Assembly (NCBI GenBank): GCA_041640595.1
Contig: JBEPZY010000009.1
Location: forward strand, 100,263-164,262
Source: Gemmatales bacterium
Lineage (GTDB): Bacteria; Planctomycetota; Planctomycetia; Gemmatales; HRBIN36
Direction of reading: 5' to 3'
Length of the DNA: 64,000 nt
A program made the translations under genes and the position numbers. Shown piece after piece: positions 2,001 to 10,792 of the stretch (within the stretch, counting starts at the first letter, position 1; every line of letters begins with the position of its first letter). The notes beneath the pieces were generated by a model that searched no databases, was not told the origin of the DNA, and saw only the letters and a program-made list of their open reading frames with translations.

Positions 2001-2090
2001 CCAGATACCACACCCGCACCGAGCCATCCTCACATCCGCATACAGGATACCGGCCATCGAGCATCACGGCCAGACTTAGGAACCAGTTTT
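2001..2090 (-). pseudogene. Single WD40 repeat remnant
   Basis: NWFLSLAVMLDGRYPVCGCEDGSVRVWYL matches a WD40 blade; no flanking repeats or intact gene. Confidence 0.55.
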
Positions 2091-2171
2091 GCGGGACGCT
2101 TCTGGCAGATAAAGCGTGTCTGGCTACCAGTCGCGGCCAGACCTGGAACCTATTTTACTCTGTCTAAAAGA

Positions 2172-2532
2172 TGACCTATCCCCAGCTTTAGTTGGGCAGG
2201 CCGCTTCGCAGAACCCCGTCAGACAATGGCTTATAAAAGTCCTATTTGTCGGTCTCGGGAACCAAACGCCCCCTCGTTCCAGCATTCGGTACGAGAATAG
2301 GACTGGCATTGCTGCAGACGACCATCACCAAACGCCACCTCATTCCAGCGTTCGGTCTGCCCATTGCAGCCCACCGCGTGCCGGGCGATTGACTACCTCC
2401 TTTGAAGCCCCGAAGAAACTCGGCGGAGTTCTCGATGCTCCCTCTGTCCCCGGAAAAACAGGCCATCTGACGGAACCGTCATTATCCGCCCGCCTTACGT
2501 CCGGGTGAGCCCCAAAGCTGGGGGATGAGTCA
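2172..2532. mobile_element. MITE-like element, copy 1
   Basis: Imperfect terminal inverted repeats TGACCTATCCCCAGCTTT / AAAGCTGGGGGATGAGTCA (TG...CA ends); no credible ORF. Confidence 0.6.
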
Positions 2533-2543
2533 GCAATCACGGC

Positions 2544-2843
2544 CGACCTATCCCCAGTTTTGGTAAGGGCAGGCGATTTCGCAACACACCCCCAGACAAG
2601 AGGTTACGAAAACTCCCATTTTTCCGGCCTCACGCACCTGGCGCTCACATCGTTGCAGCGTTTGGCCAAGCCGATCGCAGCCAATTGCGTCCCTAGCGGT
2701 CGGCGGCCCTTTGCCAAAACCTGAGCAAGCACAGGCGGGCCTTGCGTGTTCCAAATGACCCCGGAAAAACAGGCCATCTGACGTAACCGTTATCATCCGC
2801 CCGCCTTACGTCCGGTTGAGCCCCAAAGCTGGGGGATGAGTCA
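2544..2843. mobile_element. MITE-like element, copy 2
   Basis: Left end CGACCTATCCCCAGTTTT; the right ~85 bp is near-identical to copy 1. Confidence 0.6.
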
Positions 2844-2856
2844 GCAATCACGCCGC

Positions 2857-2886
2857 TTGACGCCCATGCGGCGCGGACAGTAAAAT
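2857..2886 (+). promoter_or_regulatory. Sigma70-type promoter of tRNA-Ile
   Basis: TTGACG-18 bp-TAAAAT, 10 bp upstream of the tRNA. Confidence 0.7.
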
Positions 2887-2896
2887 ACGCTGTGCT

Positions 2897-2970
2897 GGGC
2901 GCATAGCTCAGTTGGTCAGAGCGCATCCCTGATAAGGATGAGGTCGCAGGTTCGAATCCTGCTGCGCCCA
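2897..2970 (+). tRNA. tRNA-Ile(GAT), CCA not encoded
   Basis: Acceptor GGGCGCA/TGCGCCC, D arm GCTCAGTTGGTCAGAGC, anticodon arm CATCC-CTGATAA-GGATG, T arm GCAGG-TTCGAAT-CCTGC. Confidence 0.98.
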
Positions 2971-3232
2971 CTGGACGATTGTACACTAAGTGGCACGGAT
3001 TGCTAAGTAGCGATACGGACGTAACTTGCGGTTGGGGGCTGTTTTGGCGGCTGTGCTCTATATCGCTTGATAACGCCGTTTGGTCATGCGGATTTCGCTG
3101 CGCCGGGATATTCCCGCTCTGTATTGTCGGAATTTCGTTGCCTTGCTGGTTCTGGACACGCTGGCTCCGGGCAATGGAACTGGTGCAAAAATGGCTTCTC
3201 CGTCATAGCCACGGCTTCGTACTCCGCTGTCC

Positions 3233-3530
3233 ATGAGAGGGGATAAATTGTCCCTTTCCACTATCCGCACTCTGGTCATTCACAGTCTTGGCCACTCTGC
3301 TGGGCCTCTATCCACCTGGTAAACGCCGCGGCAGATCACGCATCTACGAGGATTCCCTCACTCTCTGGCCGTTTCAGATCCGTCACCGGCTCTCCTACCG
3401 CGAAGGTGCTCAGTATCGCCCAGCAGCAGGGATTTCGAGTGCCGTCTTTGCAAGCCTGCCACTACCGCGTGCATGAGTTGGATCCTGAGTTACTGCAAAG
3501 ACCTTCACTGCCGAATCTCGGCCGGGGACA
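3233..3530 (+). pseudogene. Frameshifted N-terminal fragment of an IS (IS5/IS982-like DDE) transposase
   Basis: Joining frames gives RRGRSRIYEDSLTLWPFQIRHRLSYRE/VLSIAQQQGFRVPSLQACHYRVHELDPELLQ, the GRxRxY...LSYR...PSL..R pattern of transposase N-termini; no DDE core follows. Confidence 0.55.
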
Positions 3531-3598
3531 CCGTGGAACAAAAAAAATTATTGTTCACCAGAGGGCGATGCCGAGCGTATATTAATACAGAGCAACCC

Positions 3599-3982
3599 GG
3601 GGGCGAACTGGCTTCGACCGGGTGTGCGAAAGCGTCAGTGGCGTGTCGTGGTTGGTCGGTGGGCCACGTAAAAAGCCGACCGAACCCAAAGTGCCGAAGC
3701 GCACTACGCTCTGGCTGCCTAACCCTACACCGCAGCCCCGAACCGCGAGCCTTGCCTGAGGGCGAGCGGATCTCGGCGATGCTTATCAGGCCCCCAGCAG
3801 CAGCTACCGGCGGAACTGCTGGCGGTAACCATGGCCGGTTAGCGATGGGTCGGTCCCGCCTGCTGGATCGCCCGGAGCGAAACGGCACGACCGATTTTCG
3901 GTACGGCCACAAAAGCAGGCTACACACGTAGAAGCTGGCGCGGAGCCACTCCGGGACGCGGGTTCGATTCCCGCCGCCTCCA
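3599..3982 (+). ncRNA. ssrA: tmRNA; tag peptide (A)AEAHYALAA at 3693-3722; CCA not encoded
   Basis: 5' GGGGGCGAACTGGCTTCGAC; 3' T arm GCGGGTTCGATTCCCGC and CGCCTCCA with G3.U pair; internal tag ORF ending YALAA-stop. Confidence 0.97.
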
Positions 3983-4165
3983 CTGTCATGCCTCTCCATG
4001 TTGGTTCGCAAAGCCTCGTACCGAGCCGTCCAAACCGTTTCCATGCGATCGCCCCGCCCGCACTACCGTAGCGCGGTTGACGATCTGACGCTGCTTGCAA
4101 GCGGGACCGCTCCATCCGCATAAACCCGACAAGTGTCCCCAGACACGTCCATAGTCGCAGAAACG

Positions 4166-4445
4166 ATCGCGGACAATCGTGGCGGAAACTCCGGGCATAG
4201 ATGGAACCTCCTTCGGGGTGCCCGCGACCACCGCGGATTATCCTTGCGGTAAGACGCTCTGAACGCTCTACTAGGCACTGTGTGCGATACATATCCGAAA
4301 ACGCTGCTGACCATCGCGGGCAATCCTTGCGGAAGGATGCGGCTGTCCCTGACCATCGCGGATTATCGTTGCGGTAGCACGCTCCGATGCCGGCCAAATA
4401 GCGGAACGCTTGCAAAGCCACCGCGGACAGTCCTTTCCAGACGAA
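4166..4445. repeat. Five dispersed ~21-27 bp imperfect palindromic repeats
   Basis: Core AYCGCGGAYWATCSTTGCGG at 4166, 4230, 4313, 4355 and 4420 (last copy degenerate). Confidence 0.75.
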
Positions 4446-4720
4446 CGGTTTGCGGACGTGCTTCTCATCGAGCTTGCGGCCAATCGCCGGGAGCATTCGT
4501 TCGCTCAGCGTGCAGCTAGCTGAAAACGACATCCGTTTCCGTTCGCCATTTTCCAGTTCTTGATGTGGCGTAACGCTTTCCGGGCTTGAAGTTTGCAACC
4601 GATATTTGCCTCCGTGTTTGGGACGTCACGCAACCATCCCTGCCTGATTTGTAACGTTTGCAAACTCTCCAGCGTTAACCATCTGGGCCGAAACAAGGGC
4701 AACCGAAAAGGAGACCCAGC

Positions 4721-7699
4721 ATGAATCTCGTCAACAACCAAGGCTTCCACAATCCTCAACCCGCGACTGGTGCCGAGTTGTTCAGCGCCGACCGGCATCC
4801 TTTGCTTGAACGCGAAGCCGTGCGACAAATTGGTATCCACGGGGCTCGGGGCACCGGTAAAACCTGTTATCTTGCCTCGTTGTACGGCCGCAGGATTAAC
4901 TACGACCTGGGGTTCAGCCTCTCGTTGGACGACAACAATCCCGAGGATTCGCTCGATCACCTCAGCCACGCCTGGCAGGCGTTGCAGAAAGGTAGCGTGC
5001 CTCCCGCCACGGCAGCGGTCAATCCGTTCCGTCTCTCTTTCACCGTAACGCATTGTGGCCAGAGCTGGTCTGTCCGGACTCTCGATTACGCCGGCGTTCT
5101 CGTCGAGCGTACCCCCACCGGCGCCCAGGACCTCAAGATGGAAGTGCAACAATGGCTCTGCCAGTGCGACGGACTGCTCATTTTCGTGGACCTCAGCGAA
5201 CAGCCTCAGAATTTGCTCGACCGCCTCAACGAAGTGGACCTTCTGCTCAACCGCCTCCGCAAACTCAGCCCGGATGGCCAAACCGTACCCATCCCCGTAG
5301 CCGTCGTCTTCACCAAATGGGATTGCGTGGCTAAAGACCTGCAAGGGGCTGATTTCGCCAGTCAACAGCAGAAACTCCGTCACTATCTCGCTAACCATGC
5401 CGAGTTCAAGCAGTTTTATGACCAGATCCAGCTCAGCGGCGAGCGAGTCGAGGTTTTTCCGGTTTCGGTTTTCGGCAAATATCAGGGCAATAATCTCCCG
5501 CCGCCGCAGGGAGCTCAACCTTTCGGTATTCACGAGCCCATCCTCTGGGTGCTTCAGGAATGCGATCAGGCAATTTTCGATGCCACCGAGGCGCGAGTGA
5601 CCCCGCTCCTGAACAAACGCTGGGCCAACTACGCGAAAGCCATTGCTACTTATAACTCAATCGCCAGAAAACGCCTGATTGTTCGTGGGCCGGTCGCAGA
5701 TAGTTTCGCCCAGGCCATTCGCCAGCTGCGTATGCGTGCCGCCTTTCGCTTCACACGCCTGGCCGCTTCTATCCTATTCACCTCGGTGCTGCTGACCCTG
5801 TCCGGAATGTTAGGCTGGGATACCTATCGCTACCACGCCGCCCTTAGGGCACTAAACGACGTTCGGTATTTGCCGGAAATGAAAGAACAAGCCGCCCTGG
5901 ATTACATCAAAACAGCTAACCCCTTTGCACAGTGGCTCGGTCGTCGTCAGCGCGTCGAGGAACATCTCGCTAAGTTGCGCAATGACTGGCACGACGCTGA
6001 CTATAATGAATTACTATCGTTCTGGACAGCACACGAAGCGGACGAAACTAAGCAGCAGGAAATCGTAACCCGCACACGCCAGTTTCTAAATCGGTGGCCC
6101 GATAGTCCTTGCCGTTCTGAAGTTGAAACCTGGCAGCGAAACGCCGATGCCATTGTCCGTAAGCAACACGAGCAAAAAGCCTGGGAGGGTCTGGTGCAAT
6201 TCTTCACCCAGCATGATAAAGACTCCGAGGCGGAACAACGCATTAACAGGATCGAAACGTTTTTGCGTGAGTATCCCGAGTCTGACTATAAGGAAGATGC
6301 ACTAAGCTTAAAAAGAACCGCCGAAGATGCTCACAAGCGCTGGCAACAGTTCCAGACCCTGCTAAGTGACTGGCCACAAATAAAGCAGGAATGTGAGACC
6401 TTGACCATCGGCGGTAATTCTGATGCGGCCGTTAAAAGGTGCGTGGAATTCCGAGCCAAATGCCAGCAGTTTCAACGGTCAGTATGGTCATCTCCAACTT
6501 ATAAAGAGTATAGCGACGAGCTGGCCCGGCTCCTAGACGAGATTGACAAGACCGGCGACCAATGTCAGTGGCGGGGAGTCGAACTTTATACCGCTCGCAA
6601 CCCTTCAAACTATGACGAAATCATCAAGAGGGCGAAAGCATATAAGGACAGCACAACATTCGCCACTAAGTATTTCGAGAAGGCAGCGGATAAGCTTATG
6701 ATGCAGACCCTGCGAAGTGAATGGTCCCAGATACAAGTCGAATGTGAGAACCTGACCAACGGCGGTAACTCTGATGCGGCCGTTGAAAAGTGCAAGGAAT
6801 TCCGAACCAAATGCCGGCAGTTTCAACAGTCCGTCTGGTCATCTCCAACTGATAAAGAGTATCGCGACGAGCTGGCCCAGCTCCTTGACGAGATTGACAA
6901 GACCGGCGACCAATATCAGTGGCGGGGAGTCAAACTTTATGCCGATCGCAACCGTTCACACTATGAGCAAATCATCGAGAAGGCGGAAGCATATAAGGAC
7001 AGCAAAATCTTCACCACTAAAAGCTATGATAAGGAAGCGGATAGTCTCATCGAAAAGACGGCTGAGAGCTGGGACTCCGCACTGTATAACGGTTTTCGGA
7101 ACGCTGCCATCTACGCCGCTGGTCTGGCAGTCGAGACCAACGATATGGAGCGAAAGACCCGCGCATTTGAAGATGCGGCCAAGTTAGCCCGTGCATATCT
7201 TGAGAGCAAATGCCCAAAGAAAAAACATAAGTCAACCGTGGAAAAATGGTTGCAATGGTTCGATGGAATCAACAAACCTGCCGTAGCGTTAACGGTGATT
7301 ATCGTCGATGCTCAATTAGCTGACAATGCGGAGACCATCTATGATCCGTTCGATCCGCCTGATGTGGAAATTACCCTGGAACTCAGCACACAGGCAGGCC
7401 AAAACCAGCAATGGAAAACCCCCGTCGTGAATAATAGCTTTGCTCCGAGGTATAACGTCGAATGCAGGAATGTTATGGTAAGCTGGAACGACCGCAACGC
7501 AAAGCTAAAACTGACTCTAACCGACAAGGACATAGCCTCTGATGACGAGTTGCCTATAACTTTCCAGGGGCCAGATGTGATTTTCCTGCTGGAAGGCTGG
7601 GTTTGGGTACAGGATGGGCCAGGACGCCATCACATTCGCTTTTCCTGTGAGCAATTGCGGCCACCAACCTTGCCTGAGTATGGTAACAATCCTCTATAA
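4721..7699 (+). CDS. Membrane-anchored P-loop GTPase (DO-GTPase2-like) with helical repeats and a C-terminal C2 domain
   Basis: G1 GARGTGKT, G3 DYAG, G4 TKWD, FPVSVFG, PFGIHEPILW; TM near 5750-5820; 117-aa tandem duplication; C2-like KTPVVNNSFAPRYN and DKDIASDDEL; AAGGAG RBS. Confidence 0.85.
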   Translation: MNLVNNQGFHNPQPATGAELFSADRHPLLEREAVRQIGIHGARGTGKTCYLASLYGRRINYDLGFSLSLDDNNPEDSLDHLSHAWQALQKGSVPPATAAVNPFRLSFTVTHCGQSWSVRTLDYAGVLVERTPTGAQDLKMEVQQWLCQCDGLLIFVDLSEQPQNLLDRLNEVDLLLNRLRKLSPDGQTVPIPVAVVFTKWDCVAKDLQGADFASQQQKLRHYLANHAEFKQFYDQIQLSGERVEVFPVSVFGKYQGNNLPPPQGAQPFGIHEPILWVLQECDQAIFDATEARVTPLLNKRWANYAKAIATYNSIARKRLIVRGPVADSFAQAIRQLRMRAAFRFTRLAASILFTSVLLTLSGMLGWDTYRYHAALRALNDVRYLPEMKEQAALDYIKTANPFAQWLGRRQRVEEHLAKLRNDWHDADYNELLSFWTAHEADETKQQEIVTRTRQFLNRWPDSPCRSEVETWQRNADAIVRKQHEQKAWEGLVQFFTQHDKDSEAEQRINRIETFLREYPESDYKEDALSLKRTAEDAHKRWQQFQTLLSDWPQIKQECETLTIGGNSDAAVKRCVEFRAKCQQFQRSVWSSPTYKEYSDELARLLDEIDKTGDQCQWRGVELYTARNPSNYDEIIKRAKAYKDSTTFATKYFEKAADKLMMQTLRSEWSQIQVECENLTNGGNSDAAVEKCKEFRTKCRQFQQSVWSSPTDKEYRDELAQLLDEIDKTGDQYQWRGVKLYADRNRSHYEQIIEKAEAYKDSKIFTTKSYDKEADSLIEKTAESWDSALYNGFRNAAIYAAGLAVETNDMERKTRAFEDAAKLARAYLESKCPKKKHKSTVEKWLQWFDGINKPAVALTVIIVDAQLADNAETIYDPFDPPDVEITLELSTQAGQNQQWKTPVVNNSFAPRYNVECRNVMVSWNDRNAKLKLTLTDKDIASDDELPITFQGPDVIFLLEGWVWVQDGPGRHHIRFSCEQLRPPTLPEYGNNPL
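6353..7054 (+). repeat. Intragenic 351-bp (117-aa) tandem duplication
   Basis: CAGACCCTGC at 6353 and 6704; GGNSDAAV...VWSSPT.KEY.DELA.LLDEIDKTGDQ.QWRGV occurs twice. Confidence 0.95.
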
Positions 7700-7773: not shown

Positions 7774-9282
7774 ATGTACCCCAACCTAACTGCTATGAGC
7801 AACGAAACGCCGACTGTCAGTACAAGTGGCAGCGCACCGCCCCCGCAGGAGATCAGCGCTGAGATTGAGGTTCCCTACGCGGTTCATCGCTGGTTCGCCA
7901 GCGGTGAAGGCTGGGCATACCATCCGGACATAGACCTCAAGCAGGTGCGAAGGTGGGCGACCAGGATACTTGCAAATCGTAGCGACGTCTGGCAGCCCAC
8001 GCCCGAGGGCGAACAGGTTAGTGAGGCCCTGGAGAAAGAACAGTTACCTTGCGATACCGGGCATAACCTATGCCTCGTATATAGGCATTACGCGGATAAG
8101 GAGTGTCCGGATCCGAGAGCAAAGCAGCGTTTCCCAACCGTACTTATCGTGGCATTAGCTCACGACCTCAATGATGCAGAAATCAAAGAAGTGCAAAAGC
8201 AACTTAGTGCACTCCACGACAAGGACTTACCGCAACAACCAGGGCGCCAGGATACCCTCAAACTCATAGTAAAGCGAATCCCCGCGCCTACCGCGAACGA
8301 CCAACCGGTAACTCCTGATAATATCCCGGCCAGTAATCAACCTGATGCTCATCCTGACGTTCATCGGCCGGCCCATCGTTCGTTCAAGCCGGTTATGCTG
8401 TGTGGGGCGGTGTCCGTGTTGTTAGCGGTTGGTGTCGCAATCTACTTGGAACTTTTTCTGCCGGAAACACCGGTCAAATCGCAAAGAGTAGATATCAGTC
8501 CGACTGTACCGAGTGAAAGCGGGAATGGTACTGCTTTGGTTGCTCCTACACTGCCTTCTAATGCTGCGCTGTTTGCAAATAACACGAACACTAAGTCCAC
8601 TGATAATCAATCTCCTGGTAGCGCAGCACGTGTGAAGTCCCAACCAGAAGGCGCGGCGCGCTGGAGAAAAGAGGCTGCCGAAGCTATGCTCCGTCATCTG
8701 AAACGCTGGCATAAAAGTGGGCCGCTTATCAAGGAGTTAGACCATGTGCCTTCTCTCAGGCAGGAAGCGCGTCGGCTTCTGGAAGCGAACTTGGAAACCG
8801 TGCCTACAGGCGGCACAATTCCCATGGAGCTGGAAAATCAGATCATGAGCCGATTCTTTCTCGTGCTCAGCCAGGAACCGGTAAGGGATTTATTGAACGA
8901 AGATGTTAAGAACAATACCTGGCAGGGAAAGTTTATGTGGCAGTTTCGTGAGGAACATCCGTATGCTAAGGGGACTTGTCCCAGATGGTATCCAGAATCG
9001 GAACAGGAACTGCGACAGTGGCTCCAAGATCTGGAGCAGTGCTTTACAAGTCATTCCCCAGGTGCACCGAAAGATCATATCGCAGGTGAACCAAATATTA
9101 GGTCTCACGAGGCATCGGACGCAATATCAGACCTGGTTGATCGGGTAGCCGGACGCATTGATTACTTTGCCTGGAAGCAGGCAGTTGAGTCTCTTGGCGG
9201 GAAGCTCAAGGATTGCACAGATACGAGATTGAAAAAATGGGTCGAAAATTTCAGAGCCAGCACGAATGGACCGTCCAGGTGA
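7774..9282 (+). CDS. Hypothetical bitopic membrane protein (N-terminal globular domain, Pro-rich linker, TM, helical domain X)
   Basis: 502-aa ORF; TM VMLCGAVSVLLAVGVAIYLELFL; C-terminus aligns by eye with the downstream gene. Confidence 0.8.
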   Translation: MYPNLTAMSNETPTVSTSGSAPPPQEISAEIEVPYAVHRWFASGEGWAYHPDIDLKQVRRWATRILANRSDVWQPTPEGEQVSEALEKEQLPCDTGHNLCLVYRHYADKECPDPRAKQRFPTVLIVALAHDLNDAEIKEVQKQLSALHDKDLPQQPGRQDTLKLIVKRIPAPTANDQPVTPDNIPASNQPDAHPDVHRPAHRSFKPVMLCGAVSVLLAVGVAIYLELFLPETPVKSQRVDISPTVPSESGNGTALVAPTLPSNAALFANNTNTKSTDNQSPGSAARVKSQPEGAARWRKEAAEAMLRHLKRWHKSGPLIKELDHVPSLRQEARRLLEANLETVPTGGTIPMELENQIMSRFFLVLSQEPVRDLLNEDVKNNTWQGKFMWQFREEHPYAKGTCPRWYPESEQELRQWLQDLEQCFTSHSPGAPKDHIAGEPNIRSHEASDAISDLVDRVAGRIDYFAWKQAVESLGGKLKDCTDTRLKKWVENFRASTNGPSR

Positions 9283-9303
9283 GCAATAAAGGAGACGGCA
9301 CGA

Positions 9304-10368
9304 ATGTTAGGAGCCAGCTTGCGAAGAACGGTCAGGGCAGTCTTACGAGGGTTGGTTGCCGTATTAATCGCGGTATTAATAACCGCGGCCATAGTTGTAG
9401 GCGTACATGGTGCGTTGCGTGCCGCTCAGGATAGGCGTGAATTACAGCCAGCCCTCGAATATATGGCCTCGGTGGTAGAAGCAGCGATCGGCTATACACC
9501 TAAAGACCGCGAAGGGATCACCGAGGCTTTTTTCACTCTTTACAGCAGAACGCACTGGCAGACTGGGGAAATAGGCAACAAAAACCATCCCGATGCACAG
9601 TTCCTTATGCGTCTGCCGGATAACGTCCAGCAAGTACCTCGGTCTTTTCTGGCAAGGTGGCGAACGAGGCCATTGTACGACTATATAGAGCAACACACGC
9701 TGGGATTATTGAACGCGGTGAGCGCACCAACCGACGTGTCTAATTTTCCGTTGGCTGATCGGATAAGGCTATGCAGCGAGCGATGTCGCTATCAGTTGTG
9801 GTGGGAGAAGGATGGCGCAAATAAACTTGACGTGTTGGGACTGGATTCACCCGCCCTGGATGCGAAACGGTTGCAGGCGTTTTATCAATTGTTTTGCAAG
9901 GATAGCAAACCTCCTGCGTGGCAGGTGGAAACAGCCAAGCTGATACTCGGCGACTTACGCCGCTGGCGAGTGGGGGGACTTAGCGATGCCGATTGCGAAC
10001 ATCGTCCATACTTAGTGTTCGCGTGTTACTTTCATCTGCTCTCCCACAAACATTTCAGGAATGACGAATTGAAGCTCGATTGCTATGCTTCGCATTTCGT
10101 ATTGCGCCTCCCGGATAAACCCATTTCTCTCCATGGCAAATTTGACTCTGAGAAAGAACTGGCCCAGGCATTCGAAAAGCTGCTCACTTCTATCTCGCAG
10201 CAGAAACCGGCACAGGATGTTAGAAACGTTTTGGAGCAAATTCGCAAGGAACTGGATTACGATGTTTGGCTCGCCAGGTTCAGGGTCCTGATAAAGACCT
10301 CCGATGAGGACAAGACGACCGTCCATCTGAAGAATTTCGTGGCTCGATTTTCGAGCGGGAAAAATTAG
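9304..10368 (+). CDS. Hypothetical membrane-anchored protein with two copies of domain X
   Basis: 354-aa ORF; N-terminal TM; AAGGAG RBS; F(L/V)(M/L)RLPD occurs twice. Confidence 0.8.
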   Translation: MLGASLRRTVRAVLRGLVAVLIAVLITAAIVVGVHGALRAAQDRRELQPALEYMASVVEAAIGYTPKDREGITEAFFTLYSRTHWQTGEIGNKNHPDAQFLMRLPDNVQQVPRSFLARWRTRPLYDYIEQHTLGLLNAVSAPTDVSNFPLADRIRLCSERCRYQLWWEKDGANKLDVLGLDSPALDAKRLQAFYQLFCKDSKPPAWQVETAKLILGDLRRWRVGGLSDADCEHRPYLVFACYFHLLSHKHFRNDELKLDCYASHFVLRLPDKPISLHGKFDSEKELAQAFEKLLTSISQQKPAQDVRNVLEQIRKELDYDVWLARFRVLIKTSDEDKTTVHLKNFVARFSSGKN

Positions 10369-10792
10369 TTCGGCACCTGAACCGTGTCCTGTCACGTTTG
10401 GCGTCCTGCGTGCGTTAAGGTGTTGGAAAACGAGGAGACACGCAGATAGCTGTAAGGTGCATGCGAAAACACCAGCACTTGCTTCCACTTGTGCATCACC
10501 ACGGGGCTAAGCAAACGGGCGAAGAAGAACAGGAGCAGCTAGTTGCGTGTTCGCGGCGGGGTTGGTCCCGGTAGGGGTTGGCGTTGCGTTGTGGCGGTTG
10601 AGGATCGTAGCGGAGCGGCGTTGGGCCGCTCGTTATCGTTTAAAAGTGCAGTCACGGATGAGGCGAGTTGATGGAATATTGCCTCCGAATGAGGTGCGGC
10701 GGACCGCTTACAGGACTCAGCCAGCATTTCAGTGACGTGTTGGTGGAATGCTGCCTCCGAATGAGGTGCGGTGGTGCGTACAATAGTGAGCT

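Follow-up and report, generated by a model that had tools for sequence, protein, structure and literature searches.

A 64,000-nucleotide stretch of a Gemmatales bacterium genome (contig JBEPZY010000009.1; the window) carries three same-strand genes 3' of a tmRNA gene, of which gene 1 encodes a DO-GTPase-like protein and genes 2 and 3 encode two proteins that share a helical domain of about 155 residues, here called R. The sequence-only reading of this DNA had described such a domain as unnamed and present three times, and both points held: three copies of R are linked by profile alignments through relatives (HHalign 97-99.96%), and gene 3 has no Pfam match at E<=1. Together the genes probably form a device that handles or senses a toxin, and we tentatively favour, at a little short of an even chance, a reading in which a GTPase switch made of two proteins would span the membrane and handle an exported nuclease toxin, with R as its binding platform on the outside. 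What emerges is a new domain and a toxin link within DO-GTPase/GAP1-like conflict systems, a link not found in the literature searched.

The toxin link comes from relatives of the operon. Profiles derived from these toxin-like genes were used to screen 31 loci and would miss unrelated toxin types; the loci screened comprised 12 loci with R from outside the window's genus, 12 loci with only the N-terminal domain of gene 2 (N-domain), 5 loci of the window's genus and 2 that were cut short and left uncounted. An adjacent, co-oriented toxin-like gene was found in 10 of the 12 R loci outside the genus, compared with 0 of the 12 N-only loci, whose neighbours include caspase and CHAT peptidases, kinases, ClpB-like ATPases and FHA-ABC genes. 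Five R loci have a 2,200-aa RHS gene directly downstream, with HNH-like or GH-E tips; RHS and DUF6531 were matched by Pfam in four of these loci, and the fifth was recognized with a profile of those four. Immunity genes of the SMI1/KNR4 or SUFU type follow the RHS gene in four loci (in the fifth, by eye), one RHS locus has both a swapped tip and a swapped immunity type (GH-E and SUFU), and the RHS genes start in a signal-peptide-like manner. In the other five R loci, a membrane-anchored protein of about 830 residues is encoded two genes upstream and ends in an E-D-ExK-Q pattern of the kind usual in restriction-fold nucleases; judged by eye from that pattern, it is a candidate restriction-fold nuclease-like protein. 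In the GTPase tree, neither kind of toxin is confined to a single branch. All five loci of the restriction-fold kind (L013:4620-5669, L014, L015, L016 and L020) also encode, between the restriction-fold-like and GTPase genes, an unnamed 350-residue exported protein that carries a signal peptide and, at its C terminus, a membrane helix.

The features of the window referred to below are as follows.

4721..7699, + strand: gene 1, 992 residues; DO-GTPase-like domain, transmembrane helix, helical ectodomain and C2-like end
4820..5560, + strand: GTPase domain of gene 1, with G1, G3 and G4 motifs and a valine replacing the DO-GTPase family glutamate
5759..5815, + strand: predicted transmembrane helix of gene 1, residues 347-365 (hydropathy scan)
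5816..7696, + strand: ectodomain of gene 1; TPR/BamD-like helical repeats and a C2-like beta domain (both Pfam matches below cut-off)
7774..9282, + strand: gene 2, 502 residues; N-domain, linker, transmembrane helix, hypervariable linker and copy A
7861..8274, + strand: N-domain of gene 2, residues ~30-167; predicted longin/profilin-like fold, predicted cytoplasmic
8392..8448, + strand: predicted transmembrane helix of gene 2, residues 207-225 (hydropathy scan)
8656..9264, + strand: copy A of R, gene 2 residues 295-497; R2-type with insertions, predicted periplasmic
9304..10368, + strand: gene 3, 354 residues; N-terminal signal anchor or signal peptide, copies B and C
9349..9405, + strand: predicted transmembrane helix of gene 3, residues 16-34 (hydropathy scan)
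9433..9906, + strand: copy B of R, gene 3 residues 44-201; divergent R1-type
9907..10362, + strand: copy C of R, gene 3 residues 202-353; R2-type
3599..3983, + strand: tmRNA gene upstream of the operon, context only

Domain R, its copies and its relatives

All of the motifs quoted in the sequence-only reading were found, in the same order, in the translations of genes 2 and 3, and the copies lie where they had been placed, A at the end of gene 2 and B and C in gene 3. When only the window's copies were compared pairwise, the A-C score (66) was reached in 0 of 2000 shuffles and the B-C score (42) in 36 of 2000, which is marginal; the A-B score (27) was reached in 1486 of 2000 shuffles and is not significant. 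Family profiles aligned with HHalign gave 97.5% for A-C (E 7e-12), 21% for B-C (E 1e-3) and a nonsignificant 1.8% for A-B directly. Against the repeats of distant relatives (R1 and R2), the values were 98.4% for B-R1, 98.3% for A-R2, 97.5% for A-R1, 99.96% for C-R2 and 99.2% for C-R1, and the relatives' two repeats matched each other at 99.8% (E 5e-30); controls in which R profiles were aligned with N-domain profiles gave 0.1-3%. Copy B, which is without the W of the first motif, is therefore a divergent yet real copy, since it matches R1 of distant relatives. In a tree of 61 copies (like the GTPase tree, a quick tree with long branches), A and C fell among the R2 rows (Shimodaira-Hasegawa-like approximate likelihood ratio test, SH-aLRT, 82) and B among the R1 rows (86). 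No further R copy was found elsewhere in the window's genome.

Gene 3 was searched against 1.84 billion representatives and retrieved 40 proteins at E<=0.001, including a 3275-residue repeat protein, which was spurious and left out, and a 69-residue piece. Twenty proteins of about 500 residues align end to end, with the N-domain, one membrane helix, R1 and R2, and in most relatives a single chain carries the longin-like N-domain, the transmembrane helix and both repeats. With moderate support, it is likely that an ancestral gene was duplicated in the window's genus, after which R1 was lost from gene 2 and the N-domain from gene 3; an old tandem duplication and then this gene duplication, rather than adaptor tagging of different effectors, account best for the three copies. 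A similar two-gene split is seen in locus L029, and proteins made of a transmembrane helix, R1 and R2 without an N-domain occur elsewhere (P0042, P0045). The family was matched in 6 of the 61 nearest genomes, in 17 of 267 genomes of the order (N-only matches counted) and in 0 of 400 other genomes drawn from the phylum. Named records are mostly planctomycetes, with one from Verrucomicrobiota, a few labelled Pseudomonadota and one contig from IMG/VR. On that contig (L073:5346-16275) an entire operon of GTPase, partner, RHS and immunity genes lies beside phage-like genes, a possible vehicle for spread.

Compared with a relative at a synonymous divergence (dS) of ~0.3-0.4, copies A, B and C had ratios of nonsynonymous to synonymous substitution rates (dN/dS) of 0.45, 0.20 and 0.39, respectively, and the two genes downstream of the operon had ratios of 0.07 and 0.17; these values indicate that all three R copies are under purifying selection and maintained, yet fast-changing. 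The gene 2 linker between the transmembrane helix and copy A (8452-8655) is hypervariable: close variants with N-domain identities of 94-96% (74% in one more distant variant) are 44-88% identical over this linker, and its dN/dS is ~1.1.

The copies could not be assigned to a known domain by any of the searches made. No convincing Pfam match for R was seen in 20 relatives, NCBIfam and PHROGs gave no match for genes 2 and 3, and the best E value in a PDB sequence search with a 20-sequence profile was 0.25. An AlphaFold model of gene 3 residues 44-354, built with 50 sequences, contained two all-helical units of seven helices each in the same helix order (predicted local distance difference test, pLDDT, 95.5; predicted template modelling score, pTM, 0.92), in keeping with the helical repeat proposed earlier, and Foldseek with this model returned no PDB or BFVD match at E<=0.001 and named no known domain. 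A wide fold search of 48,161 chains gave no Z>=5 and, having mostly probed copy B, is no proof of a new fold. The best fold scores of the two-copy model were weak (Hook3, Z 4.9, root-mean-square deviation [rmsd] 4.3, 106 aligned; TssK, Z 4.3, rmsd 3.8, 90 aligned). The IcmF-related clusters that copy C matched in the ESM Atlas, at 0.78 and 0.75, are mere leads, and one relative, for which the Atlas model was poor, gave nothing usable there. Of 15 positions conserved in at least 70% of the 61 copies, 13 are hydrophobic, aromatic or proline and the only polar ones are a serine and an arginine, a composition that speaks against an enzyme; R is likely a non-catalytic helical domain.

A hydropathy scan found one helix, before the R copies, in 29 of 32 proteins tested, and 27 of these 29 have more lysine and arginine residues before the helix than after it. 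Because R lies after the membrane helix and the basic residues lie before it, R is predicted to be periplasmic, on the outer side of the inner membrane. The long C-terminal part of gene 1 is likewise predicted to be periplasmic, and the GTPase domain of gene 1 and the N-domain of gene 2 are predicted to be cytoplasmic. The earlier suggestion of a homotypic adaptor, taken as a cytoplasmic one of the EAD kind, is not supported, as every copy sits after a single transmembrane helix. R was not seen fused to a variable effector in any protein examined, and neither the window's genes nor the 20 relatives gave an EAD or GAAD Pfam match for R.

The GTPase and the N-domain of its partner

Gene 1 matches the DO-GTPase2 family (PF19993; E 2e-7, 31.3 bits, above the cut-off of 27), its relatives match PF19993/PF19975, and the G1, G3 and G4 motifs are present. 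Its ectodomain gave weak BamD-like and C2 matches that are below the Pfam cut-off. The family GTPases group apart from three canonical DO-GTPases (SH-aLRT 91, long branches) in a tree from which L023 is absent, having been dropped by a motif filter. The linkage to a GTPase gene raised by the sequence-only reading was confirmed, as gene 1 belongs to the same operon and relatives are arranged likewise. A GTPase match lies directly upstream in 25 of the 28 fetched loci with an N-domain; of the other three, one is cut by the contig end with the ectodomain kept, and two are without a GTPase match. All 14 R loci with upstream DNA have an ectodomain-bearing GTPase gene upstream, and in all 6 loci with a GTPase that has no ectodomain, the partner too is without one. 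One locus has a degenerate half copy of R. Within the gene 1 ectodomain, 6353-7050 is a recent internal tandem duplication of about 117 residues (85% DNA identity over 347 bases), which was not found in aligned relatives.

The AlphaFold model of the N-domain (pLDDT 92.9) had longin and roadblock chains as its best fold matches, led by the VAMP7 longin (Z 7.5, rmsd 3.6, 100 aligned), with Loki longin (Z 6.7), DENND1A (Z 5.9) and TagF (Z 5.7 and 5.5) lower; Foldseek gave no match for this model at E<=0.001. The comparison is suggestive, not clear, of a longin-like fold. Longin and roadblock families pair with small GTPases. According to unpublished observations mentioned in a preprint, profilin-longin-like domains often accompany GTPases in systems directed against selfish elements (10.64898/2026.10.19.760177); to judge from that statement, this part of our results may be known to its authors. 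HHalign of the N-domain against GAP1-N1 and GAP1-N2 profiles was not significant, and the positive control, N1 against N2, was equally missed; the strand-helix order of the N-domain and GAP1-N looks alike, by eye only. In a Pfam scan of 40 N-domains, no GAP1-N1 or GAP1-N2 match was among the matches listed (25 of 55 families), and a TagF_N search gave no match anywhere, controls included.

Other arrangements of these domains were seen. On contig C8 of the window's genome, a separate zinc-ribbon GTPase adjoins a GAP1-N2 gene. In L024, with no GTPase nearby, N-domains are fused to Ser/Thr kinases in two adjacent genes (2041-7242 and 7851-9479). Four loci (L022, L025, L101 and L102) have a kinase-GTPase fusion followed by a short gene for an N-domain, coiled coil and membrane helix; a ClpB-like ATPase precedes three of these, and L022 also adjoins a canonical GAP1-N1 system. 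In L104 and L105, a GTPase and N-domain pair with a different partner ectodomain lies 3' of an ABC transporter gene (FHA-fused in L104), and a caspase-Sel1 gene is downstream in L104. An idea formed by eye, that the partner ectodomain of these two loci is a repeat of the GTPase ectodomain, was rejected (HHalign 0.2%).

Readings of the module

In the reading we favour, the longin-like N-domain of the partner would bind the cytoplasmic GTPase domain and set its nucleotide state, and the R1-R2 pair would act together with the TPR-like ectodomain of the GTPase in the periplasm. There they might hold a Sec-exported toxin precursor, either an RHS shell or a membrane-anchored restriction-fold nuclease, whose release or activation would be gated by the GTPase cycle. 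As a linked toxin is absent in the window, the window's copy would act on an unlinked client. A stronger version, which we think unlikely, is that the module is an undescribed minimal toxin-deployment machine of Planctomycetes-Verrucomicrobia-Chlamydiae (PVC) bacteria, in which a single-pass GTPase and a single-pass longin-domain partner, laid out like TssM/TagF without a type VI secretion system (T6SS), would hold Sec-exported RHS or restriction-fold nucleases by the periplasmic R domains and release them under GTPase control. If true, the machine would be a bacterial longin-GTPase pair that gates protein traffic across a membrane.

A number of observations weigh against the switch that we favour. 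The window's GTPase has a valine in place of the Walker B family glutamate, which is present in 4 of 17 family GTPases read. Four loci (L026, L103, L104 and L105) have a GTPase ectodomain without detectable R, and their partner ectodomain is of another type or missing. The longin Z of 7.5 is below the tool's clear level, and profilin, GAF and beta-lactamase chains score 5-5.6. The copy in genome G002 (L010:8496-11340) is broken by a frameshift in gene 2 and a stop in gene 3. Searches of Pfam, PHROGs and PDB sequences gave no match for the restriction-fold protein, whose nuclease call was made by eye, and no cytoplasmic immunity gene was seen beside the restriction-fold genes. The 10 toxin loci are not independent; they include two near-identical pairs and amount to ~7 lineages. 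No adjacent toxin was found in the window, in the 5 fetched loci of its genus or in L019 and L023, and the window's genome, which is 95% complete, has neither a DUF6531 gene nor a relative of the restriction-fold protein. Finally, the topology was read from a simple hydropathy scan.

One alternative, which we also hold to be unlikely, is an envelope-spanning defence sensor of the DO-GTPase/GAP1 kind, whose ectodomains would detect an invader or envelope damage and whose GTPase would license a self-directed effector, nucleases being one interchangeable effector class. The DO-GTPase Pfam match of gene 1, the peptidases, kinases and ATPases around the N-only loci, the patchy occurrence (17 of 267 genomes in the order versus 0 of 400 others drawn from the phylum) and the faster evolution of R than of neighbouring housekeeping genes (dN/dS 0.2-0.45 versus 0.07-0.17) all speak for it, as does the lack of a visible cytoplasmic immunity gene in the restriction-fold operons. 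In the published systems (PMC7159879), a DO-GTPase is paired with a partner encoded downstream and with effectors that vary, and membrane helices are frequent. However, signal-peptide-like RHS starts with cognate SUKH or SUFU immunity are the layout of toxins aimed at other cells, and no GAP1-N, GAP1-M, GAP1-C, GASH or FNIII match was found in the module proteins.

The same absence of a classic immunity gene in restriction-fold operons could mean that the module is itself protective: R and the GTPase ectodomain might catch the cell's own or an incoming toxin in the periplasm and block its entry, with toxin-less lineages keeping an orphan protection. Orphan immunity genes are usually kept under purifying selection without a linked toxin, and the module is intact and under such selection in a genus without one; the duplication and fast change of R would also fit broader recognition. 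This seems distinctly improbable, however, because RHS loci already have dedicated immunity genes, we know of no immunity protein of which a GTPase switch is part, and no sequence common to the RHS and restriction-fold precursors was detected that one domain could recognize. Less probable again is the view that R acts as a homotypic adaptor in the manner of EAD or death-like domains, with A binding B or C and so joining the products of genes 2 and 3. The sharing of R by two adjacent genes, the two-gene layout of L029, the proteins P0042 and P0045 and the rigid packing of B against C in the model (pTM 0.92), from which R-R surfaces are predicted, are in its favour, but R is predicted to be periplasmic and is not seen fused to variable effectors, most relatives have both repeats in one chain, and gene duplication explains the three copies.

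The operon would work like the DO-GTPase/GAP1 class, of which it is not a typed member. As in the systems described by Kaur et al. 2020 (PMC7159879), a DO-GTPase gene is followed directly by a partner gene, membrane helices are present, the spread among planctomycetes is patchy and the neighbouring effector genes vary; unlike those systems, the window's operon has one GTPase, no zinc ribbons and valine for the Walker B glutamate. No GAP1-M or GAP1-C Pfam match was found in genes 2 and 3 or the 20 relatives, the N-domain running directly into a linker and membrane helix, and genes 1-3 gave no GASH or FNIII match in a scan that does detect GASH in a canonical locus. The large ectodomains on GTPase and partner and the linkage of relatives to RHS-nuclease/immunity pairs are further differences. 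RHS and IcmF have 0 mentions in the main text of PMC7159879, and RHS, DUF6531 and SUKH are absent from two of its supplements; the paper's neighbourhood source file could list such loci. Polymorphic toxin systems, as described in PMC3482391, resemble the relatives, in which an RHS protein with an HNH or GH-E tip is followed by SUKH or SUFU immunity, with one swapped tip; the window differs in having no toxin and immunity pair, which 5 relatives have. None of the 8 GTPase passages in the first 300,000 of the 357,715 characters of that source presents a GTPase module as a trafficking partner.

The likeness to longin, roadblock and DENN partners (VAMP7 longin, DENND1A, MglB) lies in the predicted N-domain fold and the constant pairing with a GTPase gene, whereas identity is 9-14%, Z is at most 7.5, and the N-domain is single and fused to a membrane helix. 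TssM (IcmF) has a cytoplasmic NTPase, a membrane helix, a periplasmic helical part and a terminal beta domain, and tagF is often adjacent. The layout of our operon is similar, and the N-domain-TagF (Z 5.7 and 5.5), R-IcmF (0.78) and R-TssK (Z 4.3) comparisons point the same way, all below the tools' bars; in contrast, gene 1, gene 3 and relatives gave no NCBIfam T6SS match at E<=1, and no T6SS core genes were seen among the scanned neighbours of the loci. Literature searches, whose coverage excluded subscription papers, found no paper on the module.

The module would add a third partner type, with two unnamed domains, to the DO-GTPase systems and would tie DO-GTPases to exported polymorphic toxins. 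To our knowledge, the route by which signal-peptide RHS toxins leave the planctomycete periplasm has not been described, and the operon is a candidate few-part apparatus for that exit. A longin-like domain with a GTPase at a planctomycete membrane would also bear on the origin of eukaryotic longin-GTPase traffic switches. For the window alone the outcome is humbler: its module is a duplicated form without a toxin.

Surroundings of the operon

The operon has a slightly low G+C content (0.51-0.53, compared with 0.576). It lies 5' of the same HAD gene in two other genomes and is located elsewhere in two more. Integration at the tmRNA gene was considered and rejected, as no duplicated tmRNA end was found downstream of the operon. 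Promoter and terminator scans of the operon did no better than on shuffled sequence. In three hot-spring RNA runs, pieces of the locus were present as contigs only; one of these has even depth over genes and spacers, and they are therefore no demonstration of transcription. One RNA-run contig skips 132 bases at 8447-8580 of the window. Short imperfect direct repeats of ~37-39 bases lie on either side of the operon (4220-4420 and 10660-10780), and the two sets are unrelated. In the G002 locus, the GTPase gene is intact and lies 3' of a MoxR gene. Elsewhere in the window's genome, an RHS remnant (G000:C3:78828-80453) has, by eye, a possible small RNase-like tip.

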